DNA from: Histomonas meleagridis 2922-C6/04-290x
Lineage: Eukaryota; Protista; Parabasalia
Length of the DNA: 64,000 nucleotides
Assembly (NCBI GenBank): GCA_020184695.1
Contig: JAANOX010000275.1
Span: forward strand, 195,173 to 259,172
Direction: 5' to 3'
Below, in pieces: positions 14,178 through 62,060 of this stretch. A program made the position numbers and the translations under genes. The notes beneath the pieces are model-generated. The model saw only the letters and a program-made list of their open reading frames with translations. It made no database searches and was not told the origin of the DNA. Numbering within the stretch: position 1 is the first letter of the stretch; each line of letters starts with the position of its first letter.

Positions 14178-14368
14178 TACAATGGCCAAGATTATTAACG
14201 AGTTTTCAGAATGATTCCCCAGTACGATAAGCTTTTGAATAGATATAACTTGAATACAACAAAAAACACTAAAGGATAAAGAAAACAGGAATGTTGATAA
14301 TGATGAGCTAAATTGAACAATAAATGTCGATTATAACATCAAACAATACACTAATGAATAACATAATA

Positions 14369-15161: not shown

Positions 15162-15162
15162 T

Positions 15163-15315
15163 ACAATACATTAATGAATAACAATATAAAAAACAGTATA
15201 CATTACATTATACAGTATATCATACAATACATTATACATTACATTAATGAATAACAATATAAATAACATTATACATTACAATATGAATTACATTAATGAA
15301 TAACATAAATACATG
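15163..15315. repeat. Degenerate tandem repeat (tacattaatgaataac / cattacatt); also present at about 14345-14366
   Basis: The same unit flanks both sides of the 14369-15161 mariner. Confidence 0.6.
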
Positions 15316-24451: not shown

Positions 24452-24699
24452 TTAATGTTAGCAAACTTAGAAATTAAAAAAGACCCTGATTTTTAATAAT
24501 TAAAAATAATATATTTTTATTGAAATAAATTGACAAAATTAATTCCATTGAAACAAAACGGTTTCAAAATTTTTTTTTAAAAATAATTTAAGTGTAAATC
24601 TGCTAACAGAAAAACTGGGCAACATTAGAAAATGGGGTTAACGCAAACAGGCTATGTCAATGATTTATTTCTTTAAGTTCACAATTCCGATTTTACAAT

Positions 24700-35228: not shown

Positions 35229-36300
35229 TAGGGGGTCAAAAAGTTCGTGTAATTCAACTTTTTCTCAATAAATGAACTAGATATAAAAAATTTTTTTATT
35301 AATTTGTGTAGTACTCCCCTTTGTTATTAATAACCCATTCTAGACGGCGGCACCATTCTTTATATACATCTTCAATTTCTTGTGTTGAAATTCCATTGAG
35401 AATTTCCGAAATTTTTATAATTAATTCGTTCTCGTTATTGAATGTGTAGCCTTTGATCCGTTCTTTTACAACACCGAATAGCCAAAAGTCACAAGGAGCA
35501 ATATCTGGTGAATAAGCAGGGTGAGACATTCTTCGAATGCCTAAATTTTGTATCTCGTCGGAAGTAACGGTCGCGTTGTGTGACGGTGCATTGTCGATAT
35601 GTAAAAAACAACCTGAAACTCCCAACCTTTTTCTTCTTTGTTTTACATTATTATTTAACTTTTGGAGTATACCTTGTATCATATACTGTGCACTAAATTT
35701 TATATTATTTAATAAAGGATCTATTAAGATAATCCCTGCCGTACTTAGGTATACGCTAATCATCGTTTTGTTAACCGTCATAATTCTTTTGAGAATTTCT
35801 GGCCTTTTGCTTCCAATTGGAAACCATTGACTTGTATTGTTGTTTTCCCAATATATCCATGTTTCATCACCTGTAATTATGTTGCACCAGAAGTTTTTAT
35901 TGTTTCTGAGAATTTCTAACATTTCGTGTGCAGCCTGAACCCTATTGGCTTTTTGAGTTGATGGGGGATCCATCGAAAATTCAACTTCACATTACCAATT
36001 TTATCATGTAAAACCTAAAGAATTGTTGTCTTAGGAGCTCCCAACATATTGGCAATAGCTTCTGCTGATAAAAATGGATAGTTCATTAAAAGATCCTGCA
36101 CTTGGAACTAATGAAGTATTTTTAGGTCTCCCTGTACGGTGTTCGTCATCAAGATATTCTGAGCCTTCTTCAAATCTTTTGAACCATTTTCTTATAGTAT
36201 TTTCATGAGTCATTTTTTGAATCATTTGAACATAATTTCATCCAATATCAATAAAAATAATCTCCATAGGAGTTGATACTAAAAATATCAAATGTATCAT
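35229..36300 (-). mobile_element. mariner (DD34D) element; only one TIR found
   Basis: TA then tagggggtcaaaaagttcg. ITGDETW, HIDNAPSH and HPAYSPDIAPCDFWLFG motifs, with an HTH fragment (IRKWFKRF) upstream. Confidence 0.85.
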
Positions 36301-40499: not shown

Positions 40500-41051
40500 T
40501 TAATATTGTTTATTCATTTAAATTCTACGGTAATGTGAGACACCCTATAATTTCTTCATCTTGTTCAACCCATAGTAAATCATCTTAAATTAAGTCATTT
40601 AATAAAATTAATACTCAAACACAAAAGATTTGTAAAAAAGAAACCAAATTCAAGAAAAGTAATGTCTATTTTTCTTTAATTTAATCGATATATTAATTCA
40701 TATAGAAAAATATATTTTTGAGAATACATTTGTATTCTGATTCAAATTTGACTGTTATACGACATACGACATAACATAATTTAGATATCTGTTCGTTTCA
40801 AATAAAAATATTGTAGAGAAGAGAATATAAAGCAAAATACTTCATATAACTTTTACATTAGAGAACATTTTGAATGTCAATTTTTCAAATATGATTCGTA
40901 TTGAGTGACGGGTAGACACTTTACTAAATGAATAAGCATATAAATAGAATTTTCATAGTTGATATAGAATTATTATTACTTCGAAGCCATAAAAATATTA
41001 ATTAATAATTAATAAATTATGAATAATAAATTGCATTTGGTGAACAAATAT
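40500..41051 (-). mobile_element. Helitron Rep, downstream continuation of 43975-45350 (split by the MULE)
   Basis: Removing the MULE and one TSD copy rejoins the frame as ...ETGEHNICSPNAIYYS. Confidence 0.5.
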
Positions 41052-43974: not shown

Positions 43975-45350
43975 AACAAATATTATGTTCTCCTGTTTCG
44001 ATAATGTGAACATGACAATGACCATTAAATCGAAGTAAAAAGAAAGGTGAATAATCCACTATGTAACGAGTTGTTATATCTTTTGGTAATAAAATTTCAC
44101 CCTCATCAGTTATATGTATTTCTTTGCGAATAGGGTTCGGAAATCCATACTTACAATTTGCTAAAGGATCATTTTCTCACATTCAGCAATATTACAATTA
44201 TGAAACATAGCTCCATTAACTAAATTGTGTAATTTAGGGGTTAAGTTGGAAATAATATCTTAAAAAACGTATTTGAAATAATATCAAGATAAGGTCTATT
44301 TTCCAACCATAAGAGAGCATGAACATGTGGAGCTCCACGTGCTTGAAATTTTGATCTCCACGTATAATTAATTACTTTCCCTAAATTCATATCACTAATT
44401 AAGCTCTGAAAACCATTTTTTTTCAAATTATCGATTACATCAAATAATCATTTTTTCAAGGTACCAGAATCGAATATCGATTTTATTAGAATATTGATGA
44501 ATTAATTTCATTTTCTGAAATTTCGCCTTCTTTTCATTCGCTAACTAAGGTGAAAATTAACATTAGGTCTGGATCCCCAAATTGCGAACACACCATTTAC
44601 CATTATCAATTGTTTTTGTTTTTAAATTATGATAAAACATGAATGAGCTTTTGCATAAGCATTAGATGTTTTTTCATCTATGACTTGCAAAAATATAACG
44701 TACTATGTGCAATGAACGTAATTAAATAATATTGTATATTATTTATTTTGTCCAAATAATGGAGGTTAGTATATTCGGCTTTCTTCCTGTCTGAGCAGTG
44801 ATATTTGCTGCTGCTGCAATCTATTAAATTCTGAGATCTCCTACATAGAATTTAGGCCATAATCTTATTCCTTGGAATATTTAACATAAAATTACTGAGA
44901 ATTCAATGATTAAAGATTTGTTCTGATGATATGTCAATAAAAAAATAACTGAAGATTAATATATCACTAAACGTCAAAATTTAATTCAATTTCATCATTC
45001 AAGACATCTTCATTATTTTCCTTGATGACATTCAACATTATAATCCATATTTGATAAAAAAAAATAAAATAGATACAAGAGGTCATTTTACGACATGCCG
45101 CTGAAGGTGGTCTTAGTTATTCGAAAAAGTGACAAATCATGAGTTGCTCCTACTAAAAGAAATTTAATCGATTTATACATAATTGAATTACAAATAATGA
45201 TGGAATATCGATGCAAATCAAAATACAATCAGTTGGACCAAAATTTAATGATAAGAAGAAGCTAGGATTATAAGCCATTAATAATATTTCAAAGAGGATG
45301 AAGAAATGTGAAAAATTAAATATTAACCACACATAAATGCAAGCATTGTA
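43975..45350 (-). mobile_element. Helitron Rep (HUH endonuclease) remnant
   Basis: FGDPDLMLIF (motif 1), KFQARGAPHVHALLWL (HUH motif 2), CKYGFP and GHCHVH. Confidence 0.85.
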
Positions 45351-45804: not shown

Positions 45805-45905
45805 ATCGTAAATCCAGGCCAAAAAAGTGCCCAACTTTTTGAATGGATCATATTAACTTTTTCATAACTAACCGTACCGATATAGGGCGAAAAAGTGACA
45901 GCAAT
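45805..45905 (+). repeat. Left arm of an inverted repeat pair (partner 51700-51785)
   Basis: atcgtaaatccaggccaaaaaagtgc matches the reverse complement of gtcacttttttgccctggatttacgat. Each arm carries a second agggc(g/a)aaaaagtg copy. Confidence 0.6.
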
Positions 45906-46523
45906 AATTTTCCATTCGATTTCTTAATTCAAAATTGAATTGCCGCGACAAATAAGGAAAACCCATTGAATAATTTTGGTTGTAAAATACATTTGAATGC
46001 ATTCAAATAATTTAATGTGTTAATACAATTTCTTGATGTAAAGTGTCAAAATATTTATGTCATCGTCGAATGTCATTATGCTCCGAGTATTTATGATCGA
46101 AAACTATTTTTCCATTCTCATCGAATTTTCAATGGTCGTGATCCCAGGGCAAAAAGTGTTATCCGAATCAATAGTAATAAATATTTTCTATTTGTATTTT
46201 TATGCCAACGAATTAAATATTGTCTTTTGATTGAGAATTTTGCACTTTTATTGATTTTCAAAAATAAATTATTTTGATAATTTATGCGAATCTATAATAG
46301 AGTTTGCTGTTTATGTTGTTGAGGTTTTTTAGAGTTCCATAAAACAAAATTAATGTTCACTAAGTTCTATTATTTATGATAATATTTTTTCATGGTGAAA
46401 CATTGCACACTTCAAATTTTTTTATACCCCAAAACTTGAACGTTTTATGGTATCTCTCAAAGCGTTGATTCACATTGGCTCAAACAAAAACACTCAAGTT
46501 TATATTAATCTATACAATCATAT

Positions 46524-46950
46524 TCATATCCAATCGTCCTCGGCCGCTTTCGCCATATCTTCGATGCTTCCACTGATCTCTTCGACAAGCTTTGTACTCG
46601 ACGTCGAGTGTGTCTTTGAATTCCATTTATGCCAATGACTCTTTCTTTTCCTTATTGCTCTGCACCAAGAAGACAACGATGCCGGCAACGATAGCCACAG
46701 CCGACTCGCAGACAATACCAGTCAAAGCTGGCGCCGTGATGCCGCCAGCGGATGGAGGGGAGGCCTGGAACACGACGGTGAAGAGTTGCGTGTAGAATCT
46801 GTAGTATGAAGAATACGCAACGACTCTGTGATCATAGACGAGCTCACTTCGAACGTTTGTAAGTGACGAGGTGACGACGGAAGAAGAAAGCGAATTTGTG
46901 TGCATGGCACATAGAGTTAGCGTGTACGTGAGCGACAAGGTGGCGTCGCT
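46524..46950 (-). pseudogene. Truncated, frameshifted surface-protein C-terminus (S/T-rich stalk, TM helix, acidic tail)
   Basis: LSLTYTLTLC..HTNSLS...VVAYSSYY.FYT..FTVV is paralogous to 47310-47897. TM IVCESAVAIVAGIVVFLV; the tail continues in another frame. Confidence 0.7.
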
Positions 46951-47309
46951 TCGAAACGATTCTATAAATGCTTTTTTTTTGTGTTACTTCATATTCAAAA
47001 TTTCTTTGGATGTAAAAACTGTATTCCCCAACATTACGTATTAAGTAAAATGTATGAGAGAAGAGTGATTTTAATCACGAGTCATAATTAAATATAGATG
47101 GAACTCGTTCCCAAAAATATCAATGGTTATTAAAAAATGTGAAAACTTCACGGTTTAAATCTAAACTTTATTATGTCATTCAAAACTCGCCCACACGATT
47201 GTGCTTTATATCAATTCAATATCAAACAGGAATCTAAATAACAAAAAAATAAAATAAAATCACAAAATAATAATCAAAATAGTAATGAGTTTATATAATG
47301 AAATGAAAA

Positions 47310-47897
47310 TTATATTTGATCGACGAATTTGTCTTCCTTGAAATCATCTGCAGATGAATCGACTTCGATGCTTGTGCTTGTCATCCCAATTGTGAAGGTG
47401 ATCCCAGTTTCGGAAACTTTTTCTTCAAAATTGGTTAAATCTTGTTCTTGTTCTTGATCGCTCCTCATTTGTTTATTGTTCCGAAAACGAATCAATACAA
47501 CGGCAAGCAGAGAGACTATAATGGCAGCAGCAACAGCAGCGCAAACCGAAGTGATAATTATCGCATTGTTGTCGCTCGCTTGTGACTCATTTGGATATAC
47601 GACAGTGAAGAAATTTGTGTAGTAGCTGTAGCACGAAGAATACACAACGACTGTGTGCTCGTGGTAGACGACCTCCGTCTGAATGTGAGTGAGCGACGTG
47701 CCAACAGCGGAAAGCGAAAATGAATTTGTTTGTGTATCACATATAGTTATTGTATGCGTGACTGACAGCGAATACGTCAATGTGAATGTAAATGATATTA
47801 TTGCATCACTTCGAAGCGATTCTGTGAATGTGTCTGATAGTATGAATGTATTTAATTCTATGAATGTGTTCGATTCTGTGAATGTGAGAGTTGGCAT
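47310..47897 (-). CDS. Orphan C-terminus of a Pmp/adhesin-like single-pass surface protein (FTES repeats, TM, acidic tail)
   Basis: TFTESNTF...SDTFTES repeats and TM AIIITSVCAAVAAAIIVSLLAVVLI followed by RFRNNK. No signal peptide; an in-frame stop lies about 11 codons upstream. Confidence 0.65.
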   Translation of the reverse strand: MPTLTFTESNTFIELNTFILSDTFTESLRSDAIISFTFTLTYSLSVTHTITICDTQTNSFSLSAVGTSLTHIQTEVVYHEHTVVVYSSCYSYYTNFFTVVYPNESQASDNNAIIITSVCAAVAAAIIVSLLAVVLIRFRNNKQMRSDQEQEQDLTNFEEKVSETGITFTIGMTSTSIEVDSSADDFKEDKFVDQI

Positions 47898-48759
47898 TGC
47901 TATTCTCGAGTTTCTAGAAAATTGAGTTGTTTAAGTTTGATCACTGATAAAAAAAAAAGAAAAGAACTATAAATAACGAATAAAATCAATTCACACTCAT
48001 GAATCGCAATCAATTGCTATAGTCAGCTAAAAAATTCATTCAAAACAAATATTGAAATGAATTTATATAAATATAAGTTGTGATTGTGCATTGATATTTT
48101 TTATTGCAAGTTCATCTAAATGTTTTCTTAAACCCCTATTTCAGTATGAAAATTTTGAAATTTAGAAAATAACACTCAAAGAAACAGTTAATGTAATGCT
48201 TATTGTTGCTCAAGCTTAACTTCTTGAAAAATTGGCAATATTATTAAAACAATTACTATTATGTATTTTATGAGCGTTTTGAAATTAAAATAAATAAATA
48301 TTAATGCAAGAGAATATTACTGAAATTAAAAATTATTGCAATATTCATCATGAGGTTTCCATTATTAGTTCAACATTATGAAGAGATGTTGTGATTGTCG
48401 AAACCAGATGCATAGACTTTCTAGATCAAAATTAAATATTATTATATTTGCTTAGTTATGTTGTTTTATTAATTTGAATATTATGAATCTTAAAACACAA
48501 CATTATTCAACGAGATATCGTATTGAAAATCTATTTTATAAATAATAACGAAAAACGTATGATATCTCTGTTTCTTATGTTAATTCATTAAAATATATTG
48601 TGAATACAAGAAATTTATATAATTTTTTAATTATATTCATTTAATATAATTTTTTATTTGTTTTTATTTTTCTCTTTTTCTTGTTCATATCTTATACGAT
48701 TTTTTATTAATTAATATATTATTATTTATGTGTATTTTCACTTAATTTCATTTTTATAG

Positions 48760-49140
48760 AGCAATCCTATCTATCTTTATTTTTTTTGTTTATCTTTTAT
48801 CATTTGTTTCGCTTTTTTATCATTCTTTTCTCATTTCATTTATCATCTTTTTTGCTTATCTTTCATCATTCTTTCTCTTTACTTTCATAATTCTTTCTGT
48901 TTATCTTTCATCATTCTTTTTATTTATCTTTCAGCATTCTTTTCTCTTTACTTTCATCATTCTTTGGGTTTATCTTTCATCATTCTTTTTGTTTATCTTT
49001 CGACATTCTTTTCTATTTACTTTCATTATTCTTTTTGTTTATCATTCAGCATTCTTTGCGTTTATCTTTCATCATTCTTTTTGCTTTTCTTTCAGCATTC
49101 TTTTCTATTTACTTTCATCATTCTTTTCTTTTTATTATTA
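48760..49140. repeat. Pyrimidine-rich ~21-bp minisatellite (gtttatctttcatcattcttt)
   Basis: Many degenerate tandem units. The hydrophobic ORFs at 48964 and 48989 are by-products of the repeat. Confidence 0.8.
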
Positions 49141-49362
49141 TTTCCCACTGCTTTATATGAGTCTAATTCTCTTATTATTATTTACATGTTGCTGAGTTAT
49201 GTCCTTCTTTCCCACATTTATGGCATCGATATGTTCTTTTTGTTTTATGTGCACCGCATTTTTTTTGGTGATCAACAAATAAAGATTGTTTTGTGATTGG
49301 TAGACCTCTCTGTGCAATAAATTCAGGCGATCCTGTGGAACATGTTTTTAAATTGTTAAATC

Positions 49363-51075
49363 CTATGAAAAGATTGTCAAATAATTTATGTATTTCTGGA
49401 TTTCTATTTGATCTGCTGCTATTGGAGATACCATATCCATAAGATTTGTATACTTATACATATTATAATTATTATTTACTTGCACGGTTTGAATTTCTGT
49501 TTCTTCTGTTTCATCAAAATGCTGTGTAAAATAAATGTCTGGAATATCTTCTTCTTTGACCAAAGGAAATAGACCAGCTTTATACCTATTAAACAATATG
49601 TGGCAACAAGGTAAACCAAATTCTGTTTTAACTTTACAATTACAATCTTCAGAATTAATACTATGTAATAATGGAGAAATCTGTACATATACTTTTATAA
49701 TATTATTCATTTTTTCGTATTCAGTATTTAGAATATTGAAACATAAATTACCAAGTTGCTTACCGTGATATAAATCTAAATTGATTTAAATTCTTATTGT
49801 TGCAATATTTTTTTTAATAAGCATTTCTGCATGTAATAAAAATGCATCAATGATATCTTTTAATGTAACAATTGTATGATCTATCCAATTTTTAATTGTA
49901 GAAAAATTTCCTTCTGCTAAATTCGAAGTATAATGATTTCTTAGTATATAATGAGCTAATATCTCCGGATCATAATACTAAAGATGTTTCAATAATGACT
50001 GCAAATGAGGTTTTTCTTTCATATTTTTTCGGATTTCATTATTAATCAGTGAAACGAAATCTGATGCTTTCATTTCTCCATGAAATAATTTTATTAGCGT
50101 TTGATATATTACTGAATTAACACCACAATGATCTGATACATTTCTCAATATATGAACTCTACAAAATACAATCTTTGGAGTTTTAAAAACATATTTAATT
50201 GCTTTTCTTTGAGATTCCAGTCGATCACATATAAATATTCTAAAATTAATATATTTGGAAAGAATAATTAAAAAATCAACAAAATCATTGAATGTTTTCC
50301 CCAATAAAATACCTAAAGCAATCATTTGAGCTTTGTCATTCTCGTCGTAGCAATAACATAAAATTATTGGATACCTGTACTTATTAGTACACATAGTATC
50401 GTCCATCACATAGATATCTTGTGCATAGGGTTTGAATATAATGGAGCTATTAATTAAAGTTAAATCATGGAATTCATCATCTTTTTTTTTGAAATGTCAC
50501 AATATACTTCTTACTCCATTCTTGAGATTCCGTTTCAAGTTGTTCGATTTCATTTATAAATGTTTTTGTCAAAGCATTTCGAATAGTTGTATAGTTGATT
50601 TGAAGAGATTGATAAATTCAAATTTTTTTTAATAAAATATGGCGAAGCATATTTAGAACGCAAATCATTAATTTCCTCTTTTTGTTTTGAAGTAATAAGG
50701 CAAAAAAAACTTTCAACGTATCTCTTATTCATAGAGTGATTGTGAATCCATTCACCAGAACAATTACATAGGATTGAATCTCTGAACTTCACACTGAAGT
50801 GGCTTGGGCAATCCTTGAACCTGCACTTATAACAAACATATGATGTAATGTCTCTTTTTTTGGACTCAACAATTGAATATGGACATCGATGGATCGCCAT
50901 TTGGTCTTTGATATCGATCTTGAAATCATCAAAAGCACTCATCCCAATTCTCCCTTCAATATAATCAATGAATTCAATGGGGGTGCCTTTTTTTATTTCC
51001 ATTTCTATCTGCAAATTTATAAATAAACGGTTTTATCCGGACGGTTATGTTGTTTTCCAATTTAACCTAACCCGT
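49363..51075 (-). mobile_element. MULE (FAR1-like) transposase, disrupted
   Basis: MMDDTMCTNKYRYP, FICDRLESQRKAI...FCRVHILRNV and SWIM CNCKVKTEFGLPCCH. A candidate terminus ...taacctaaccc lies at about 51073. Confidence 0.85.
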
Positions 51076-51699
51076 AACAAATGTAAAACCAAGAGTAGGA
51101 AATCAACAAATGTGATCGATACTTCATTGAAACGCAGACCTTTATAAAATCTGTTTAACCAGTGAATTTAAGTGGAAAAAATGGAATAATTAAAAAAATA
51201 GATATCAACAATTATTAGTTTGAAAAAACGAAAAAATGAGAGTTTTCGCTGGTCTTAAGGTCATTGCTGTTATTGTGTTTATAAAAAATGTGTTGTTTGA
51301 GTTTGATTACTGATCAATTATCAGAGAGAAAGAATATTAGGACATAGAATGAAACAAACCATTTAACACTTGTGCTTCGAAATCAATGATTGTGGTCGGA
51401 TGAAATGTTGGTGGACCTAAATTCAATATTCGAAAATGTCAAGACCATGACCAGTCCAAATGGCGAAATGGAGTAGTGATCATCTTCATATTGGCCCCCT
51501 TGAAAGGAAACACAAGATCAATCTTTGGTTGAACAACTTTCAGGAAGATGCATTGAGGCTCTGGCTTAAATAAACTTTTGGCGCCACGTTTATTTTGACA
51601 AAATCACGCGCCTTCTGATATTTTGCCACTGCTAGATAAAAATTCAATGGCTCACAGACGCATTTAATTTTTTTCTGAGATGATTGAGAGTGTTTTTTG

Positions 51700-51785
51700 G
51701 TTGGCACTTTTTTGCCCTGCGCATTATTGTTTTTCTCTCAAAAGTATTCAAAATGCTTGTCACTTTTTTGCCCTGGATTTACGAT
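51700..51785 (-). repeat. Right arm of the inverted repeat pair (partner 45805-45905)
   Basis: Two copies of cacttttttgccctg; the outer one extends to ...gatttacgat. Confidence 0.6.
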
Positions 51786-51901: not shown

Positions 51902-51961
51902 GTCGGGACGATCCCAGGGATTTCTGATCCCTGACCCTAGGGTCCCTGAGATCGTCCCGAC
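51902..51961. repeat. GC-rich branched hairpin
   Basis: 19-bp arms (18/19 complementary) enclose two alternative sub-hairpins. Confidence 0.85.
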
Positions 51962-52149
51962 CTTAGTAGTCAAAAAGCGACGGTTATTGTTTGGTCGCAT
52001 GGCAAACTTAATTTTCTATATATGCTTAAATCTGTGACTAAAAATTATTTCTGTATATCACAAAAAAATAAACGTCTTTCGCCTGAATTTGTTGACTGCA
52101 TTGATATATTATGAAAATTCAATTCGATTGGTCAAATTTTAAATATTAA

Positions 52150-52950
52150 GTGATCGCTAGTATACTTCGGAAAGTATATGTTCTATTTCGACTTGTTTTA
52201 ACTTATTATTAATATTATACATTTTGTATAGTTTATTGTAGTCTTCCTCTGATATTAACAAAGAAACTACTCTAAAATAATATATATATGATATTATTTT
52301 TCTAATATTATTCATATATATAATACAGATCTAAAAAATTGTGGAAAACTATAATGTTCGAAATAAGTTAATATTAATGTGATATTATTATCATAATCAT
52401 ATTTAATCATATAAGGTTTATATTCATTTATATATTTATCTAAATTTTTTACTTGTTTATTTATGAAATTTTCAGGTTTTTTGATATAAAACATGTATTC
52501 ATCATATATTTTAATGTTGTTGTCAACTCGTTGTTGTTGTTGTTATTTTTGAAAAATATTCTGATATTATATAGTTTTTCAATTAATTCTTTTATTTTAG
52601 TATTTGCATTAATAAAATTACCATTTTTCAAATTATCCGATAGGTATCGATATAACACTAGACATTAATGCTCCATTTATATCAATATAATAGTATTTCT
52701 CAATCAAATGTATATTTTTCCATATAGTTCATAAATATATACATTCTAATCGAATTTTATTAGCAATATCACCACTCAATTCATATATATTATCAAAACA
52801 ACCATATTCATACATAATTTTCTTCATTAAATCGCTTGCCTTATAATAGTTTTAAACATTAATATTTACATTCGATTTATTAATAATCTTTTACAGATCA
52901 TTTAATCTATAATCTATGTCAATATCTTGTTTATCATAACCAAATAACTT
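52150..52950 (-). pseudogene. Protein-primed family B DNA polymerase remnant (Polinton/PLV type)
   Basis: One frame reads GCFDNIYELSGDIANKIRLEC..*..KYYYIDINGALMS..SIPIG (motif A-like DxNxxY). Then LKYMMNTCF (motif B-like), HYSFPQFFRSVL and SLLISEEDYNKL. Confidence 0.6.
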
Positions 52951-52989
52951 TTTATTTTGTTTATATTTAACAGTATCTATATTTGGAAT

Positions 52990-53790
52990 ATATTTTTCAT
53001 AACAATCTTATTATATCATTTGTTTGAGGGCTTAACCCATCAGATTTACGTATGTTTGGCATTACTTTTTTTGCCAAAGAAAACAAAAGTAAGTCAAGTG
53101 GTTGCACTTGATCACTTGAATGGGATGGAATTACTACTGCAAGATCCACGTTAAATGCAAAACATTCATCCTCAAAATAATCTGTAAAATGTTGCTTCAA
53201 TCCATCTAGTATCAGCACTGCAGATCTATCGAAGTATGGATCTTCCTTTCGATGAGATTCTAATCTTTTTTCTATTTGGGGAAAAAAACATGGCGTACCC
53301 CTAAAAATGAAATTTATAAATCCATTTTCCTGGTTACAGATCATTACTTTTTTTCTGGCTTAATACCAATATCATAAAGTTCTTTGTCTATAGTTATCCT
53401 TGGAACAACAACAAGAGGTTTTAAATATGACCCATCCGCAAATATGCAGTGCAAAATCGTAATTCTTTTTTTCATTCTTTCTATTGGTATACTCCCTTCT
53501 TTCGCCCATTCAGGGATAACAATCGGATTTACTCTGCCTTGTGAAATTTCACCTTCCATTCTTTTGTGGGAGATATTGGTGATCGCCTGTAGAGAAACAG
53601 ATTTGCCATTTATGACCAAGTTACTGATTTTATAGATCTGTTCTCTCATCGAAGAAGACCTAATGGTGCATTCTCGTATATTAGATATTAAAATTTCTTT
53701 ATCTTTTAATTCTTCTGATACTGAAAGATCAAGGTTTTTCAGCTTTGAAGGTGGCTTCTCGACCACTTCCATTAAAATGACAAATTTATT
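52990..53790 (-). mobile_element. pogo/DDE_1 transposase remnant
   Basis: ITILHCIFADGSYLKPLVV, LILDGLKQH and IPSHSSDQVQPLDLLLF. Confidence 0.8.
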
Positions 53791-54099
53791 TCAAATTGTG
53801 ACGACCACAGACAAATCAGTAAAAGGCTATTTTACATCCTGGTCTACAGGTTTTTCACCGCAGTCTATATTTAATAGCAAACATTAATGCTTTCAACATA
53901 ATATTGTTTTTATTAGAGTTTAGGATATAAGTTGAATTATTTTGACATGTTAATTTGTTGATTAATTTTATTTATAGTTTTATTTTCAGATTGTTTGATT
54001 TTTAATGTGTGTCTCATTCTTTTATATATATTTGAAATCCTCATATGAACTATATCCATATTTCTCAAACATTTCTATAACTTGTTAGATTGATAGTTT

Positions 54100-54837
54100 C
54101 TTTGACATCTAATTACGTGCTTTTTGAGATTCTATAGAAGTCAACACTTTCAAACAACCTATTCCTACCTTAAATGATTCGTCTCAGCTAGATGATTTTA
54201 CGAAAACAAATAATTTTAAGTCGTACATGCTTGGCTTGAAAAGAATAATGAAGGGGGATATATTCCCAAATGCTAAAAAGTATGTCACAATACAACTTAT
54301 GATAGTTTTTTGCGAAAAGTACAAATCAGAATGTTAAAAATAAAATAGAATCTATAACAATAGAAAGTTTGCTTTTATGGCTTTTTACGAATTTCCGAGG
54401 CGTACAGATTAATGTGGAAAGAAATAACATATGATCAGGACGGACGTTTGGTATTACTCATTCCTTATTCTACAACAGATCAAACAGGGAGGAGAGTCAA
54501 TGTGTACATTTGTCGTTCGAACACAATATATTCCCCTTTTATATGGTTACCAAAATGGATAGAATTAAGTCATATAAATGAAGAATAATCGAATGTCTTT
54601 ACATTATGTGATAGAACATTTAGGAGAAAGTTTAAATTGCAATTTAAAAAAATTGGAGTGAATCCAGAGTGTTATTCAACACATTTTTTTCGTAAAAATG
54701 CCGCTCATGAACCATCATTGGCTGGAATTGCTGATTGCAAAATTATAGCCCAAGGAAGATGGATTTCTTCATGCTATCAGCGTTATACTTCTATCCAAAT
54801 GGTTGAGGCTGGAGATGCAATTACAGTTAAGACTTAA
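54100..54837 (+). pseudogene. Tyrosine recombinase (DIRS/Crypton/PLV type), disrupted
   Basis: FYGFLRISEA (catalytic R), IPYSTTDQTGRR (SKTDQ with K>T), HFFRKNAA and GRWISSCYQRY (W and catalytic Y). Confidence 0.85.
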
Positions 54838-55023
54838 TTCGAACTCAATTTATATTTGTCCATATAATTTTTTATATGAGATTGAAAAAGTTGTTAGACA
54901 ATATTATTATCAAAAAGTATCCTGTTAATTACATTATATGTTACATTATTTTTCTCAATATATATTTTACTAACATAATCATAAGTATCACTTTTACAAC
55001 AATGACTGTCAGTATCTGCTTTT

Positions 55024-55140
55024 ATGAGTTCTGAATCATTTGTATCTGTTAATAATTGTAATATTTTGATTAGCTCGTCTTCATCACCAATTATATATTT
55101 ATTTACAATTAAATTTCTTGAATTTCTTTTTACATTAGAT
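55024..55140 (+). mobile_element. Short Helitron fragment
   Basis: VSVNNCNILISSSSSPIIYLFTI is homologous to VSVDNCINFINTSSSAIIYFFTI in the Helitron frame at 61620-61994 (-). Confidence 0.5.
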
Positions 55141-55298
55141 TTCTATAATGATTATTTTAATAATTTTAACACTTCACCTAATAGCAATGCTCAAGACGAT
55201 ACGAAAAAGACAATTTATGTTACTAATGTTTTTTCTTCATTATGGTCAGTAGAACAAAATGTCAAAGAATTAAATAAACAAAAAAAATAATATTTATT

Positions 55299-55505
55299 TT
55301 ATTTATTTTTTTTTTCATAAGGTATAACATATATTTCACTATTTCGTCTTAAAGCTGAAAATGGTATTGGTTTCTCAAATATAATTGCATTCGTAAATGT
55401 CACCCTTCTCTGTTTTTCTATATCTTTTAAATTTGTAATTTCAGGAATATTTAACCTATTTTTGTTGTAATAGGTTTCTATAACTTCAGGTTTATAATTA
55501 GACAT
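55299..55505 (-). CDS. Small viral hypothetical protein (68 aa)
   Basis: Intact ORF with TCATT 8 nt upstream of the ATG. Confidence 0.55.
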   Translation of the reverse strand: MSNYKPEVIETYYNKNRLNIPEITNLKDIEKQRRVTFTNAIIFEKPIPFSALRRNSEIYVIPYEKKNK

Positions 55506-55535
55506 AAATAAAAATGATTTTTTTTAGTCAATTAT

Positions 55536-56106
55536 TTAGTTTGCCCTAGTTATTATGCTTTCTCTACGTGGACGTGGCCCTGGATATGGAGTAATTATTA
55601 AATACGGATCATAAATGCTTAAAGCTTGTTGACATCTTAAGTATTTTCTAATACAGAAAATCACTCGTGAAAACTCAAAAGTATGAAGCTTCCTGTAATG
55701 ATCACTCACCCATCTACCAGTGTCAGTTAATATCCTTATCTTATCTATATTCAACTTCACGTAACATATTGCGTGATATACACATACATCCTATAGTAAC
55801 ATATCTTCAGCGTTAAACGTAGGGTCATCCAAATCGAACTTTTCTATAGGAAGGTAATGTAAGTCACTAGGCTGTATTCGTCTTTCAGGTATAGCCCAAG
55901 TGTACATAAAATCAAAGTCCCCTAACTATATCTACATCAAACCAGACATTTATATTTGAAGGCCGCACTTTGCTAATAATGTAACTTTCTATAGAAATAG
56001 GACCAAAGTTTTCTTCAACCAAGTTCATCGGATCATAATATCCCTTTGAACTATACAACCTAACTTCTTCTTCCTCGTTGTCACTGTCGCTGCTGAACTG
56101 TTGCAT
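55536..56106 (-). pseudogene. Viral hypothetical protein (~190 aa reconstructed)
   Basis: The 56106 and 55760 ORFs join after removing one base from the G4 run (55919-55922) and reading through one TAG (55791-55793). Confidence 0.55.
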
Positions 56107-56179
56107 TTATCAAATTTAACTTATAAATAAATGATTAAAAATTATAAAAAAAACTCAGTGTCAGAAAAATGCTATAGCA

Positions 56180-56270
56180 TTGAATTTTTGAAACTAAAAT
56201 ATACCAAATTGGACGCAGGCGTCCTTTAAGGACGCCTGGGATTTGGTATATTTTAGTTTCAAAAATTCAA
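56180..56270. repeat. 91-bp palindrome: perfect 30-bp arms around a GC-rich 11-bp inner hairpin
   Basis: 56180-56209 is the exact reverse complement of 56241-56270. The core is caggcgtcctt-t-aaggacgcctg. Confidence 0.95.
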
Positions 56271-56299
56271 AAAAACATATATATATAAATAATATTTTA

Positions 56300-56569
56300 T
56301 TATTTCTTTTGTCCAACTAGTGCATTAGCTACACCATCTATCACAGGTGAGAATTTATCTGCTATTTTAATTCCTTTTGCAATAGCACCTGCATGACCAG
56401 GTAAATTTTCAATTCCAGGTATTTTACCTACTGTATTTACAACAGGTTTAGCTACTTTATTCCAAACATTTCCAATAAATCTACCGACTGGTTTAATAAT
56501 TTTATTTTTAATCCAAGCACCAGCTTTTTTAAATCCGTTTTTAATTTTGTTCCAAAAACCCCAAGCCAT
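56300..56569 (-). CDS. Cationic amphipathic protein (89 aa), adenovirus pVI-like N-terminus
   Basis: MAWGFWNKIKNGFKKAGAWIKNKIIKPVGRFIGNVWNKVAKPV shows W/F/I vs K helical periodicity. Confidence 0.75.
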   Translation of the reverse strand: MAWGFWNKIKNGFKKAGAWIKNKIIKPVGRFIGNVWNKVAKPVVNTVGKIPGIENLPGHAGAIAKGIKIADKFSPVIDGVANALVGQKK

Positions 56570-56599
56570 AAATAATAATAAAAATAAATATTTATTTCT

Positions 56600-56886
56600 T
56601 TATTTATAAAATGCAGGATGTAAATTAGAAAAGATCTTATCATTTGCTTCCATACCTACTGGTTTGAATATAGGAGCTATTCTATCACCTACTTCAAATA
56701 TTTTTATCTTCCGGTAATTTCTTTAGAGGGCCTATCTTTTTAATACCTTCTTTATGTTGTTTTGCAAATTCATAACCTTTGGCAATATGTGGACTAATAT
56801 TTGCGAAGCCTTCTATAATTTTTTTTAAGTAAAGGTCCTATTTTTTTTATACCTGATTTAAATTTATACCAAACATCCCAGCCCAT
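56600..56886 (-). pseudogene. Second amphipathic peptide gene (MGWDVWYKFKSGIKKIGPLLKK...), frameshifted; not in the ORF track
   Basis: ATG at 56886. Removing one base from the A8 run (56819-56826) gives ...KKIIEGFANISPHIAKGYEFAKQHKEGIKKIGP. Confidence 0.6.
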
Positions 56887-56920
56887 TTAAAAATTATGGA
56901 AAATATTTTCATTTTTATTA

Positions 56921-58552
56921 ATGCATTATAATAATACGCAATCTAAAAATGAACAAAATGATCAAGGTAATGTTGGAGCTTATTTTGATCGTCTTAAAGA
57001 TTTAATTGCTAAAAATGATGGTACTCGTTCTTTTATTTTAAGAACTGAAGATTGTCATGATCAAAATGCACATTTTAATCAATCACAAGAAACTAGATTA
57101 AGAATTACTCATGGTGATCATATGATTTCACAAATAACTGAAGGTTTTATTAATTTTAAACTTAGAATAACTGTACAATTATCAAAAAGCTATTTCATCC
57201 GGTAATTTCACATATCCAGAAAAATTAGCTAAAATATTGAAAGGTGCTAAGAGATCTAATCAATTATTAGATCAATTACAAATTATGTCTAATAATATTT
57301 CTACTGGTTATCAACAAAATGAATGTTGTCGTGAAGGTTATTGTTATTCTACAATTAAACCTTATGCTGAAAAGAAAACTAGAAAATATACACATTCTTT
57401 ATATGAAAATGTTTCAGAATATTCTCAATCTGTTTGTGGTACTTATGTTGATTTAAATACAATTGCAGATGGAAATAAACATGATATTGAATTTGAAATG
57501 AATTTACCATTTGAAGATATATTAGCTTTACAAGCATTTGATTTATATCCAAATAGATTAGTTGGTGATATTGAATTAAAGTTTTATGTTAAACAAAAAT
57601 GGTTTAGTATGGCGTCAAGTAGATCCACGTAAAATTAAAGAAGTGAAAAGAATTTTTTTAGAAGATTCTTCTATTAATGCTACATTTAATAATTTACCTT
57701 TATTTACTTATGGTTTTTACTCAAATAGGTAATTCTGCTAATATAACTACTACATTTAAATGTGATACTGAAACTAATCATACTATTGATACTGCAACTG
57801 AGAATGTTTCTTTATATTGTACAGGTTTAACTGTACTTTCATGTAAATCTAATATGTTTGGATTTGGAGTTAAAGAAGAAACTTTAAATCAAATAGCTCA
57901 AATACTTCAACAACCTGGAGGTTTAGTAATTCCTTCACAACAATTAGATTATAATGCATTTGCTTTAGCAGCTACTGAATCTGGGGTACAATCTACTATT
58001 AATATGCCATTATTTAATGTTACTACTATTACAGTTGTATTTCCAAAGCATGCTAATGATTATACTTGTTTCGATAATCCTATTTATAATAATGTTCAAT
58101 TAACTATTGCAGGTCAAAATTATCCTGATGAGCCTATATCTACATTAGGTGCTAGATTTTTACAATATCAATTAGTTGCTTCTGATTTAGATGGTGGTAT
58201 ACAATGTACTAAAGAATTTGAAGATTCTTTAACTATGGATAGAAATGCTTCAAATGGTACTAGATATAATAATACATTAAGTGATGCTACTTCATTTATG
58301 CTTAATATACAATGTGAACGTTCACGTGGTGGTTACGTATTTGATGGTTTAGATTCTAACGGTCAAAATATACCAATACAAATTAAAGGTCAACCTATAT
58401 TTACATACGCTAATGATACATACTATAATGTAGATGAAGCTGGAAATCATCCTCCACCACCACAATTATTCATTTGTCGCGATACTTATTTCACATTAGA
58501 CTTACAAAATGGTCTGAAATACCATACTAATGGTACACCAGAGGGTTATTAA
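56921..58552 (+). CDS. Putative double-jelly-roll major capsid protein (~542 aa after three single-base corrections)
   Basis: Three listed ORFs join into one frame with no internal stop after deleting one base from each of A5 (57184-88), A5 (57595-99) and T5 (57714-18). Size, beta-strand-rich composition and proximity to the A32 ATPase support MCP; the fold is inferred, not shown. Confidence 0.65.
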
Positions 58553-58614
58553 ATAAAAATTATTTTAAAATTAGATCTCAGATTTTTTTAAGATTAAAAA
58601 TTAGAATTGATTGT

Positions 58615-58857
58615 TTATTGATACGGATGAGTGATCGCGTAGTCAAGTGCTCTATCGAACTGCTCTAGGTATTCCGGCTTCAAGATGCGCCTGTAGCATT
58701 GACTCCAATTAAGTAAACTTTCAAGGCAGCCAGGGACTAGGTTTTTTTAAGAGGCTCACGAGTTTCTTCTCCTGTGCTCCAGTGCACCAGGAAAGAGACC
58801 GCCCCATCTTTTGAACTCGGGATCAGAGATATGATCGACTGCGTACTCTTGTTCCAT
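58615..58857 (-). pseudogene. Chromodomain-like micro-protein (~80 aa), two compensating homopolymer frameshifts; not in the ORF track
   Basis: MEQEYAVDHISDPEFK/DGAVSFLVHWSTGEETREPLK/NLVPGCLE... follows EYxVxxI...xLVxW...TxEPxxNL. TCACT lies 8 nt upstream. Confidence 0.6.
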
Positions 58858-59252
58858 TCCTGAAAGTGAAGTCATGCAAAAATATTGTCTCTCAATTAAA
58901 CTTTTTTTGATATATTTTTTTATTATTTTGAAACGAACACCCTTTCAAATATTGAGAAAATAGGTTAGGACTTTGTGTCATTTGACAAGTCATTTTTCGT
59001 CATTTTATCACAACATAATTGTATTGTGATAAAATATTTTTCAAAAGTTTATAATTCAGTAAACTTTTTATTTAGTTTATTTACGGTAAACACAAAAAAA
59101 ATTTGTTTAAATAGTTTACATATACTAAATAATTAGATTTTTTTATTTATAGATCATTTTGAGGTTGATTATTTTGTGGCATTAATGTATTAGCATAATT
59201 TTGTAATACATTCAATTTATTTACATAAGCATTATATTTATTAAAATCATCA

Positions 59253-59534
59253 TTAAATATTTGATTTAATAATTCCATTTTTAGATATTTGATAAGCTTG
59301 ATCCAATTGTTCAGGCGTTATATTTTGTAAAGGATTCTTTATAGTAGGATGATATTTTTCATCTATAAATTTATAAATTTGTTTTCTTAATAAATTATGA
59401 TATTTATTATACACAGTTACAGTTACTGTTATTACATTTTTATTATTTACTATAGACAAGGAAGGTTTAATATTTATGACACTAAAATCACAATCTTTAA
59501 GTTCTTGTGCGAAGCATGTATAAGGAGCTTCCAT
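59253..59534 (-). CDS. Small viral hypothetical protein (93 aa), divergent from the ATPase
   Basis: Intact ORF with TCACT and TCATT immediately upstream. Confidence 0.6.
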   Translation of the reverse strand: MEAPYTCFAQELKDCDFSVINIKPSLSIVNNKNVITVTVTVYNKYHNLLRKQIYKFIDEKYHPTIKNPLQNITPEQLDQAYQISKNGIIKSNI

Positions 59535-59585
59535 TAAAAATAATGAAGTGACAGAATGCTTTTTTTATGAAAATTATTTTAATTT

Positions 59586-60388
59586 ATGGAAAACGATATT
59601 AATATTGATGCATTAGATAATATGATTGATTATTGTTTATATAAAAATAAACCTAAATTAAATGAAGAATTAATAAGTGAAATTCATCCAGAAGTGAATG
59701 TACCTTATAATTCTTTAAATATAGCAGTAGGTAGACAAAGAAGTGGGAAAACTCAATGTATAATTAGAGAAATTATTAAAATTAGTAATATTAGTCCTAG
59801 AACTCATTTATTAATTTATATTAATAAAAATGGATTAGAAAATGATCCCACTTTTGAATCATTAAAACCTTTAATTAAAATCCCAATTTTATATGTAGCT
59901 GAAAATCAAGCAGAAGATATAGTTAAAGATATATTAAAATGGAAACAATTTTATAATGAAATTAAAAATAATCATTGGGAAAATAAAATAGTAGATAATC
60001 AAATAACTGAATTATTTGAAAAATTATATATTAATAATTTTTAATAATTTAACTTTACATACTATAATATTTTTTGAAGATTGTGCTAATAGTCCTTTAT
60101 TTAAAAAACCTACTAATTATTTTAATCAATTATTTACTAAATTAGCTCATATTCAATGTTCTGTATTTTTCGCTGTTCAATTTTGGAAATCTTTACCTGC
60201 TGAAGTTAAAGCTAATGTAAGTACTATATTTATATTTCCTAATTTCTCTAAACAACAATTAAGATATATGATTGAACAAATACCATTACCTTATACTAAA
60301 GATCAAATTTATTCAGTTTATCAAAAATTAACTGGTCATCAAAAAAATGATTATTGATGTTAATAATCAAAATATAAAAATTGAATAA
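59586..60388 (+). CDS. A32/FtsK-HerA-type DNA packaging ATPase (~266 aa after two single-base corrections)
   Basis: Walker A AVGRQRSGKT, Walker B IIFFEDC, FTKLAH..CSVFFAVQ...LPAEVKANVSTIFIF and a terminal MIID strand. Frameshifts fall in T5 (60038-42) and A7 (60341-47). Confidence 0.88.
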
Positions 60389-60418
60389 AAAAAATTTTTT
60401 TTAAAATCATTTTTTTTA

Positions 60419-60785
60419 ATGCAACAAGATGTGATATATGGAACACGTAGACCACGAAATAAAGATGGTACACGTATATATCCACCAATTATTAAAAAAG
60501 AACGTGAAAGATATGTTACAGAGGGTGATGCTAAATATATTTTTGATGATGATTTAAGTCATTATAAATATCATGGTGCTGATAGTACATTAATTGATGA
60601 GAATATGAAAGCTTTAGCACATCTAATTCTTGATTTAAAGAAAGATGTTAGAAAAGTTAGAGATGCACAAACATATAATGGTGCTTTGGAATATGTTAAC
60701 AAACATAATGATGGTAAAGATCCAAGATATCATTGGTCAGTAAAAAAAAAAAAGATGTTAATGGTGATAATATATTTGATCATAC
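60419..60785 (+). pseudogene. Viral hypothetical protein, 3'-truncated by Helitron DNA
   Basis: TCATT upstream. The frame shifts at the A12 run (60742-53) to KDVNGDNIFD, then the sequence switches to antisense helicase. Confidence 0.55.
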
Positions 60786-62060
60786 GCATAAATTGTTCTG
60801 CACATTCAGCCATATCATCATGTGCATTTGTTACAGCAGGAACTTGGGAAGGATCACATGGAAAATAACAGTATTACCTGCAAAAGGTATTTGAATGTGA
60901 TTTCCCGTGTAATCACACTATACAATTAATCTTTTTGATGCAGCATTAATCACAGATTTATCTAACATAGTGATTACATCAACAATAATTACATCAACCC
61001 TTTGAAAACGCAAGTCCATGATGATTAGTAATATTTAAAGTTGATATTGGACCATTGGGTGACATCCAAATTGAAAATGCATCATGAAAGGTTTTTTCAT
61101 TAATTAAAGGAGCTGCAATACCTGTTGAAGCAGTTGTAATTAAACTATATAGATCGGCAATTCAGAATTTTTATATTAAATTGATATAAAAACTTTTTCC
61201 TGTTTTGCCATTAATAAATAATCTTGAATCATTGCCATCATAATATTTAATAATTGCTACTTTAATTTCCGTAAATGCTAATAATTGTTCATTATTTAAT
61301 TTGTGAAAATCCTCATTTAATGAATTTTCTGCAATTGCGCGATATTCGTTAGTATAATCTGAATTAATTAATTCCAAACATTTGGAATTTCATTAATAGC
61401 ATTCGTTTGGGTATTTTCTGAATTAATCGTATTAAATTGATTTAAACACTGACGAATTTGCGTTAATCTTCGTAATAAGAAGAAAATTTATAATAAATAA
61501 TTATGATTGAATATTTCATTTATATCAATCACATTTGAATTTCGTAAAATCATTGAAATATTTCTGGCAATTTCATAAGGTGAATAACGATTTGAACGTA
61601 ACATATAATATATGTAACTTTAATAGAATTGATCTGCCTCTGAATGAATATGATTAATGAATACACCATGATATATAGCAGCTGCTACATAACTTCCATA
61701 ATCACTTAAAATTTCATTATCAGATCTCCAGCATCCAGATAAGAATGTTATGTGTGATAACAATAATGTTCTCTTTTTGAACCCAAATAGTATTTGTTTA
61801 AAACAACAATTGGCGGCTTTTTTGCTTGTGATAAGTTTTGGAAATATAATACAAGCATTAGCGTTATGTTTAGATATTATTGAAAATAATATATTAATAG
61901 TAAAAAAATATATAATTGCTGATGAAGATGTATTAATAAAATTAATACAATTATCAACAGATACTAATGATAGAGAATTAGTAATAGCATACACTGATGA
62001 TTATCGTTGTTGTAAAAGTAATATTATAATATTTAGAATTTTTTCATTTTTTATTCGATA
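60786..62060 (-). mobile_element. Helitron RepHel (PIF1) remnant
   Basis: LLLSH...SGCWRS...GSYVAAAIYHGV, LNNEQLLAF...LFINGKTGKSF, TTASTGIAAPL, VDVIIVDVITML and PFAGNTVIF..DPSQVPAV. Confidence 0.8.

Follow-up and report, generated by a model that had tools for sequence, protein, structure and literature searches.

The window, a 64,000 nt stretch of the Histomonas meleagridis genome, contains genes of Maverick-family DNA elements in pieces, likely two remnants that differ in age (Table 1). The four genes proposed in an earlier note on this DNA, encoding a capsid protein, a packaging ATPase, a tyrosine recombinase (YR) and a PolB-like protein, are all real and all broken, and each is backed by the sequences of intact relatives. 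The region from ~55.1 to 62.0 kb is likely a younger capsid module, with amphipathic proteins, capsid, c11, ATPase and c3. The region from 52.1 to 55.1 kb is likely an older replication–integration module, with a shortened PolB, the YR and the conserved gene c24 (copy c24a), and likely comes from a second element. Every element copy in the window is dead.

Table 1. Features of the two element remnants and of the sequences around and within them
Feature	Position in window	Strand	Evidence
GC-rich hairpin just past the short PolB 3' end	51902..51961	.	19-bp arms, 1 mismatch
Short (exonuclease-less) PolB pseudogene, palm/fingers/thumb	52082..52998	-	57% to P0149, 3 frameshifts, 3 stops
pogo-type DDE transposase fragment in PolB gene	52997..53790	-	Pfam DDE_1 E 4.8e-6
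Short PolB pseudogene, N-terminal part, start codon 54108	53870..54108	-	profile positions 1-37, 87-141
YR pseudogene lacking its first ~53 aa, directly next to PolB start codon	54112..54837	+	50% to P0145
c24a, mid/C-terminal part of conserved Maverick-family gene, convergent with YR	54894..55140	-	profile E 5e-11
Two or three small ORFs	55299..56106	-	no Pfam match at cut-off, none in 47 loci
Long hairpin, 30-bp perfect arms and inner stem	56180..56270	.	z -13.2; 0/200 shuffles fold as well
c1, small basic amphipathic protein, intact ORF	56300..56569	-	47% to L036 homologue
Second c1 paralogue, broken	56600..56886	-	44% over 43 aa, 1 frameshift
Major capsid protein pseudogene, Metamonada (T. 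foetus-like) type	56921..58552	+	75% to P0010, 3 frameshifts, 0 stops
c11, conserved gene divergent from ATPase	59159..59534	-	profile E 3e-22; 42%, 1 frameshift
A32-type packaging ATPase pseudogene	59586..60385 (end approximate)	+	64% to intact relative, 2 frameshifts, 0 stops
c3 N-terminal quarter, cut off at Helitron	60419..60774	+	profile E 8e-7
Helitron-type PIF1 helicase fragment, host transposon	60786..61822	-	Pfam PIF1 E 4.3e-6
c24b, second c24 copy	61825..62030	+	profile E 3e-8

The capsid pseudogene consists of four frame pieces that align with the intact protein P0010 over 535 aa. The 1.63 kb ORF, which the earlier note had repaired to ~542 aa, reads against P0010 as about 540 codons, and the intact relatives are 539 aa proteins. 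A motif search of the supplement to PMC10120064 found a 536 aa Tritrichomonas foetus capsid (Table S3), and over the first 400 aa shown there the T. foetus capsid, P0010 and the window capsid have long common sequence runs by eye. Judged in this way, the window capsid is homologous to published parabasalid and oxymonad capsids, and its top Atlas clusters were Preaxostyla and Parabasalia (score 0.98). Because a close T. foetus homologue is listed in that supplement, the capsid lineage appears to be one already known, the Metamonada Maverick group, and the suggestion of a divergent, unnamed capsid was not supported. In the structure model of P0010 (overall pLDDT 44.8), the first roll matched D13 (Z 8.2, rmsd 4.2, 173 aligned), as well as the ASFV, PBCV-1 and mavirus capsids. 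The C-terminal half of the model is unresolved, and support for the second roll comes from a paralogue of the T. foetus capsid, listed in PMC10120064 with a match to the PBCV-1 capsid at E 3.9e-10. The capsid homology and the first-roll matches support the proposal of an endogenous virus with a double-jelly-roll capsid, belonging to a parabasalid lineage.

The neighbouring genes were compared with 47 capsid-bearing related loci (220 kb in total). The ATPase shows Walker A and Walker B motifs and, as proposed, is of the canonical Maverick–Polinton A32-like packaging type, with a Pfam Pox_A32 match (E 0.0086) that lies under the curated cut-off. Two small amphipathic genes, c11 and the start of c3 had previously been overlooked. 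The c1 family, which may resemble adenovirus protein VI, is found in 38 of the 47 loci and gave no significant PDB match; tandem c1 copies also occur in relatives (L018 has two). As in the window, c11 is divergent from the ATPase gene in L001, L003, L018 and L042, and c3, a gene of 410–520 aa, is present in 23 of the loci. A gene of 109–153 aa adjoins the capsid gene in 35 loci and is a minor-capsid candidate by position, with no PDB match; its sole match in the window covered 27 aa (E 0.012) and was not convincing. In agreement with the earlier note, a profile search of the window gave no match to an RVE integrase, and none of the proteins scanned with Pfam matched a protease. The long hairpin beside c1 has no equivalent at that position in the 47 loci.

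In the left block, the PolB-like frame scored higher than any other of the 1266 window frames in a search with a profile of related full pPolBs (protein-primed PolBs), with an E-value of only 0.04–0.06 on its own; its identity is made firm by intact relatives, which match at 57–63% (short-family profile E 9e-65). The frame first reported was correct, but the gene is longer: the N-terminal part matches profile positions 1-37 (E 7e-6) and 87-141 (E 4e-4), with 64% identity to P0148 aa 1-31. Positions ~141-370 are missing where the pogo piece, itself confirmed by its Pfam match, replaces the middle of the gene. The motif C Asp kept in intact relatives is lost in the window copy. The window PolB belongs to the short family, so the canonical full pPolB with exonuclease is absent from the window.

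The YR pseudogene carries two frameshifts and five stops relative to P0145, a Phage_integrase protein (E 2e-9), and the YR profile matches Cre/Tre at E 5e-4. Intact relatives are ~300 aa long, with an R-H-R-Y tetrad and N-terminal SAM-like and catalytic domains. The R-K-HxxR-W-Y recombinase of the earlier note was thus right as to the enzyme, but the window copy has Thr in place of the Lys and lacks its N-terminus.

The piece at 55024-55140 had been read as Helitron DNA; this was rejected, as it is part of c24a, whereas the same claim for the sequence from 60786 onward was borne out by its PIF1 match. A second PIF1 copy lies at 31558-31974 (80–83%). c24a is 35–39% identical to homologues in L027, L030 and L049, and carries no lesions in 195 nt. 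Each of these loci has one c24; the window has two diverged copies, of which c24b lies beyond the region covered by the earlier note and matches c24a at 78% of nucleotides over 138 nt only, with 20 of 39 codons differing. At ~55140, c24a is without its 5' part and meets the 3' end of a frame on the other strand. This break looks like a junction, and c24a could belong to either block. No terminal inverted repeats or target-site duplication were found in the window, where the ends may be deleted; the inverted c24 pair spans ~140 coding nt only. The GC-rich hairpin next to the PolB 3' end may mark where the old block starts on its left side; a MULE terminal repeat reaches as far as 51785.

The two blocks differ in decay. 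The PolB and YR block carries 17 lesions, including 10 in-frame stops, in 1978 aligned nt (~2.0 kb), compared with eight lesions and no stops in 3510 aligned nt (~3.5 kb) of capsid and ATPase sequence (p 0.001 for all lesions; p 4e-5 for stops). It should be noted that the block limits were drawn after the data had been seen and that lesion counts vary with alignment penalties; frameshift density alone did not differ (p 0.27). The contrast of 10 stops with none points to two insertions of different age. Lesion densities of PolB (9.3 per kb) and YR (9.9 per kb) are similar. The YR is packed between two Maverick-family genes, short PolB and c24, and we consider that it was probably the integrase of the short-PolB element, although the two were not seen together in any other locus examined.

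The intact short PolBs, which are the new part of this locus, are proteins of 689–758 aa that are commonest in parabasalids; we found no such polymerase form described for these hosts. The family falls into three unnamed Atlas clusters (125, 131 and 59 members; Parabasalia commonest), with DNA_pol_B_2 ranking next. It keeps the pPolB N-terminus (homologous to that of related full pPolBs, E 6.5e-11), together with a Cys/His pair and the two catalytic Asp residues. Exo I, II and III are absent from seven of seven short PolBs, whilst all three occur in three full pPolBs that span the region. The distance from the His to motif A is 157–202 aa, against 390–424 aa in full pPolBs, and that from motif A to B is 48–59 aa, against 137–150 aa, with about 80–100 residues missing at the TPR1 position. 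The proteins end 74–81 aa past motif C (four measured; the other four are alike in length) and have no fused helicase. Model residues ~481–733 align with the palms of family B polymerases (Z 12.1, rmsd 4.2, 191 aligned), also by Foldseek; some structural alignments begin at residue ~380, and for this reason an exonuclease remnant may persist. The enzyme may be inactive, since a degenerate motif C lacks its first Asp and seven of eight proteins have no KxY motif. The Cys/His pattern, written after the sequences had been seen, is present in eight of eight proteins; the terminal-protein and vOTU labels are predictions from position, this pattern and PMC11161782, in a region modelled at pLDDT <50. 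In L049 (3.1 kb), short PolB and c24 converge in just the arrangement that full pPolB and c24 have in the capsid-bearing L027, which ties short PolB to the Maverick family. The YR is absent from L049, which ends 400 nt upstream of the short PolB; c24 faces the PolB 3' end there, but the PolB 5' side in the window.

Two remnants of different age, taken jointly with the following histories, represent a reading that we regard as evenly balanced between true and false. From its intact relatives, the source virus of the capsid module would have integrated via an RVE integrase, with a linear genome copied by full pPolB and a double-jelly-roll shell filled by the A32 ATPase, and integrase and polymerase would have been deleted later in the window. 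In the old module, short PolB is predicted to have been active and non-proofreading, with a terminal-protein-like N-terminus released by the Cys/His protease pair and a palm with both catalytic Asp residues. Without TPR1, classical protein priming would be poor, so the likely mobility would be a YR-excised circle and not RVE-joined linear ends. Helicase would be supplied by the host or a helper and, if the element was capsid-less, packaging by co-resident Mavericks, as for a transpoviron-like satellite. Replicase modules are reported to move apart from capsid modules in the available text of a preprint (10.64898/2026.10.13.758929).

Three sources, namely a capsid Maverick, an element with short PolB and an independent Crypton- or DIRS-like YR transposon that landed between c24a and PolB and was later trimmed by deletion, seem rather unlikely. 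Unrelated transposons are dense in the window (MULE, pogo by Pfam, PIF1, and mariner-like frames by eye), the YR relatives are two-domain proteins on small contigs (P0145 and P0146, 1.1–1.3 kb), nothing lies between short PolB and c24 in L049, and GC content sets the YR (32%) and the pogo piece (34%) apart from PolB and c24a (20–21%). However, the YR and c24a stops are at most ~57 nt apart, like tight convergent gaps in relatives, which leaves little room for a transposon end; YR and PolB are equally decayed, scans of ORFs and frames close to the YR gave no reverse transcriptase, and Trichomonas is not mentioned in the accessible part of a Crypton survey (PMC3212892).

The single YR-integrating virus first proposed, which would have carried all four genes (the PolB in its short form) before pogo and Helitron DNA interrupted it, is improbable: the gene packing and PolB-like decay of the YR fit it, the genes together fit into 10 kb and no host gene separates them, c24 of capsid-bearing elements adjoins the YR, gene order varies and tandem paralogues occur among relatives (which would allow two c24 copies), no RVE or full pPolB remnant was found in the window, and a PLV with pPolB and YR but no RVE is described in the portion of PMC12721341 available, but the stop counts and the junction-like end of c24a argue against it, as do the 47 capsid loci, none of which has a window-type YR or short PolB, whilst seven have an RVE-type integrase and four a full pPolB. 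Only those seven loci reach any integrase because most related contigs are short, and the RVE assignment is weak (Pfam rve E 0.001 in one of five, retroviral integrase match E 0.8, D-D-D triad present). The accessible preprint text also reports pPolB with DDE integrases, and YRs with PolA/AEP (10.64898/2026.10.13.758929).

Returning to the two remnants, the capsid block is a known kind of virus integrating into gut protist genomes. In the parts of the original description available (Bellas et al. 2023, PMC10120064), the Metamonada (MMN) Maverick–Polinton group has a similar capsid and is multi-copy, integrated and AT-rich, and relatives of the window element share its pPolB, RVE-type integrase and A32 ATPase. 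The window copy differs in being dead and without RVE and full pPolB, and a YR and shortened PolB adjoining such a capsid are not mentioned there. The mavirus pPolB (TP-vOTU-PALM; Krupovic et al. 2024, PMC11161782) has likewise lost the exonuclease and kept the N-terminal region and palm, and motifs, spacing and structure match in this respect; short PolB additionally lacks the ~80–100 aa at TPR1 and has a degenerate motif C, no S3H helicase gene was seen, and the neighbouring capsid is not of virophage type. Tlr1-like pPolB-S1H fusions of PLVs and transpovirons (PMC5499653, PMC11161782) resemble short PolB in having no exonuclease, altered catalytic motifs and loss of motif 4 in most members, but carry an SF1 helicase C-terminal to the palm that short PolB does not have. 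Crypton- and DIRS-type YRs, as far as the accessible text of PMC3212892 shows, share the ~300 aa length and R-H-R-Y tetrad of the intact relatives, whereas the window YR is wedged between Maverick-family genes, with terminal repeats and reverse transcriptase not seen.

More tentatively, and with considerable doubt, we suggest an undescribed parabasalid Maverick-derived lineage in which an active pPolB independently shed proofreading and TPR1, a YR replaced the RVE integrase, and mobility switched from linear and protein-primed to circular and YR-based. Such a lineage could be an independent virus or a satellite of Metamonada Mavericks that has no capsid. Taken by itself, the capsid module is unremarkable, in elements that, according to the available text of PMC10120064, make up as much as one third of the genome in some trichomonads; the polymerase matters more. 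Two independent exonuclease losses are recorded for pPolB, in mavirus and in the PLV fusions, with a helicase gained each time (PMC11161782). A ~700 aa family with hundreds of members, without the TPR1 stretch or a fused helicase, would be a further, more extreme case. It provides a small, expressible protein for probing minimal pPolB capability, and bears on the reason for the usual association of pPolB with DDE integrases and not YRs. The intact relatives give gene sets for a Metamonada group still without taxonomic placement in the accessible part of the 2026 framework (10.64898/2026.06.19.733378), and show that these elements occur in many human gut assemblies.

The capsid gene of the window was found in four frame pieces that together cover the whole protein, at 75% identity to an intact relative, with three frameshifts and no stops. 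A search with a 296-aa piece recovered 391 capsid relatives among 3336 candidates and, among the 120 matches listed, identity was 68–79% and the proteins were intact, mostly 538–539 aa in length. The earlier note had seen no nameable motif in this capsid and had suggested that it may be divergent, but Table S3 of PMC10120064 contains a 536-aa T. foetus capsid that, compared by eye, is a close homologue of the window type; a paralogue of the T. foetus protein matches PBCV-1 at E 3.9e-10 in the same source. This published evidence for capsid identity is firmer than that from structural models. Although the AlphaFold model of the intact relative P0010 was poor (pLDDT 44.8), all of its ten best PDB structure matches were double-jelly-roll capsid chains (best E 7.7e-4), and BFVD matches were similar but with tail fibres mixed in. 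Over residues ~31–320 the model aligned with the first jelly roll of capsids, D13 among them, with Z up to 8.2, only modestly above background. Pfam did not recognize P0010, PDB sequence searches returned nothing for the capsid, and IMG/VR scans gave no matches for the capsid, the ATPase or the short PolB described below. The breadth of the capsid and short PolB families is that seen in the Atlas, where the neighbours of P0010 were Preaxostyla and Parabasalia clusters, together with clusters bearing Capsid_N (24% of members) and DJR-like (10%) annotations. The window ATPase was 64% identical to an intact relative.

The capsid was encoded in 47 of 89 candidate metagenome stretches, with 'human gut' in 11 of the 47 record titles. 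These loci also encoded a small amphipathic protein (c1, 38 of 47), a 109–153 aa capsid neighbour (c2, 35), the conserved genes c3 (23), c11 (4) and c24 (2), the ATPase (7), an integrase-like protein (7) and pPolB (4). The two pPolBs scanned of these four matched Pfam DNA_pol_B_2 at E 7e-40 and 9e-32, and the integrase carried a D-D-D triad, with weak database support. Relatives of the window tyrosine recombinase (YR) had no match at E up to 1 anywhere in the 47 loci (220 kb), and the short PolB matched only their full pPolBs, at 23–30%. Because most related contigs are too short to reach the integrase, this comparison counts as 7 to 0, not 47 to 0.

Metamonada-type Mavericks recur intact across public assemblies (L001–L026, L028–L029, L036–L037, L042; capsids P0010, P0093, P0117), and individual capsid sequences occur on 438, 318 and 162 contigs. 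A pogo transposase is present in both L001 and L013, that of L001 being 33% identical to one in the window; some of these Mavericks would therefore be inserted in eukaryotic DNA, the likely host being a gut parabasalid, for example Dientamoeba. At L012:391–1800 and L019:3–1643, bacterial-looking genes (IS transposase, phosphomutase; by eye) directly adjoin the Maverick core, probably through chimeric assembly of low-coverage contigs. Variable cargo includes a deoxynucleotide monophosphate kinase (L003:3841–4464; 14 loci, Pfam E 4e-12), a DUF5906 protein (L007:6222–7631) and an 897-aa repeat protein (L003:5737–8427). The c2 protein (L019:3677–4027 and homologues) is beta-rich, adjoins the capsid and is a candidate minimal minor capsid protein. 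The c1 protein may resemble adenovirus protein VI; neither c1 nor c2 had a significant PDB sequence match.

The window was re-mapped with profiles built from the gene clusters of the 47 loci (see table). The c24 match nearest the YR, c24a, places viral-family DNA at 55024–55140, which had been read as Helitron. The Helitron-type assignment of PIF1 from 60786 onwards stands, and this PIF1 was rejected as the element's own helicase, a second copy at 31.5–32 kb having no viral neighbours. As had been reported for rve integrases, the integrase profile had no match in the window; the c2 profile gave a single 27-aa match (E 0.012). The two c24 copies were rejected as terminal inverted repeats, their likeness being confined to coding sequence and too low for the young capsid block.

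Features mapped in the window
Feature	Position	Basis or remark
c24 (c24a)	54930-55121	profile match
c24 (c24b)	61849-61980	profile match
c11	59256-59534	profile match
c3 start	60545-60742	profile match
Short PolB gene	54108 to 52082	interrupted by pogo
Long nested hairpins	56180-56270; 51902-51961	no coding role
GC-richer stretch	58615-58944	between capsid and c11
MULE element	45805-51785	40-bp inverted repeats at ends, transposase inside
23-bp tandem array	48758-49178	inside MULE element
Thr/Ser-rich membrane-protein fragments	46524-47930	inside MULE element
Decayed DNA transposons	41051-43975; 13338-13742; 14367-15163; 24694-25927; 35299-35991	include MULE-like with 118-bp inverted repeats and several Tc1/mariner-like frames (by eye)

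The window is AT-rich and combines long genes that are still intact with numerous decayed DNA transposons; the taxa of the closest protein clusters point to a parabasalid host. The GC-richer stretch between capsid and c11 holds a short broken frame on the minus strand and had no match in the loci or Pfam. The long nested hairpins, with another at L001:2341–2405, may represent one family of small foldback elements. For the hairpin at 56180–56270, a role as a conserved viral signal, either in stopping transcription or as a resolvase site, was rejected, as it is not conserved among relatives: hairpins with arms of at least 16 bp numbered only four in 220 kb of loci, none of them after c1.

The PolB-like frame proposed earlier was marginal against full pPolBs (E 0.04), yet the best of 1266 frames. 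Its identity was secured by relatives of a different kind: with X at stops, the window sequence found three among 59 candidates at 57–63% identity (seven with cluster members), all 715–758 aa in length, and a further 689-aa relative at 35% in the metagenome locus L049. The pogo insertion that had been said to cut the region replaces profile positions ~141–370 of this gene. Two parts of the short PolBs, a stretch at the N-terminus and the fingers/palm, match related full pPolBs. Exo I, II and III were absent from seven of seven, by patterns met in three of three full pPolBs spanning the region, and the distance from a conserved His to motif A was 157–202 aa, versus 390–424 in full pPolBs. Motifs A and B lie 48–59 aa apart (137–150 in full pPolBs), a spacing that implies removal of the TPR1 site. 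We take the position of TPR1 to be as in phi29. The position was also drawn from PMC11161782. A global alignment misaligned the N-termini and was used for motifs A–C only; the motif A Asp was kept in eight of eight short PolBs, as was the second motif C Asp, whereas the first motif C Asp was not, and KxY was kept only in L049. In a model with pLDDT 48.3, residues ~481–733 matched family B polymerases (Z 12.1; 55 Foldseek matches at E up to 0.001), and profile–profile comparison recovered the fingers/palm part alone (probability 96.4). Neither Pfam nor a PDB sequence search recognized the protein. The Atlas placed it with three unnamed clusters of 125, 131 and 59 members (697–750 aa), followed by a DNA_pol_B_2 cluster; Parabasalia was the commonest taxon in the three, among few recorded members.

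In L049 the short PolB is convergent with c24 (40% identical to that of L027), the same arrangement as the full pPolB and c24 of the capsid-bearing L027; the link between the short PolB and the Maverick family comes from this one locus. L049 is a 3.1-kb contig filed in a bacterial MAG, likely as mis-binned protist or viral DNA.

The YR had two relatives among 119 candidates (299–304 aa, 52–54% identity) with the full catalytic set. These upheld the identity claimed for the window copy; the claimed R-K-HxxR-W-Y order did not survive whole, the catalytic Lys being lost, and the first ~53 aa are missing. An IMG/VR scan gave only a 24% match, on a prophage-looking contig. The YR match and the PolB start codon are 4 nt apart, implying a deletion that removed the promoters of both genes, and at the other end no more than ~57 nt separate the stops of YR and c24a.

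The PolB, YR and c24a block carried 17 lesions in 1978 nt, including 10 stops, against eight in 3510 nt and no stops in the capsid block (all lesions, p 0.001; stops, p 4e-5; frameshifts alone, p 0.27), with the split chosen after the data were seen. The stop and lesion load, the integrase count, the presence of c24 in two copies and what looks like a junction at ~55140 make two remnants more likely than one. PolB and YR decay alike, at 9.3 and 9.9 lesions per kb, and we favour, with moderate confidence, two remnants in which YR and short PolB belong together. Separate origins for the capsid-bearing, short PolB and YR parts are a less likely reading, under which the YR would be a third arrival. 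Least likely is the single YR-integrating virus of the earlier note, against which stand the stops, the integrase count and the second c24.

Beyond the gene identities, breaks and motif content shown here, the capsid block would derive from a Metamonada Maverick that carried both RVE integrase and pPolB. Literature searches, with Repbase and subscription papers outside their scope, found no description of a short parabasalid PolB; PMC13215967 has no trichomonad term in its main text, and the short PolB could be among the pPolBs from 7041 genomes in its supplements. YR cleavage leaves a 5'-OH, and priming directly from the recombination nick is therefore not assumed. The capsid part is a decayed endogenous virus of a known kind, and the adjoining reduced polymerase appears undescribed in parabasalid hosts. 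The older block may have encoded a non-proofreading PolB, predicted to be active, that would be poor at terminal-protein priming; the element was likely mobile via a YR-made circle, with a helicase, and perhaps the capsid, supplied in trans.
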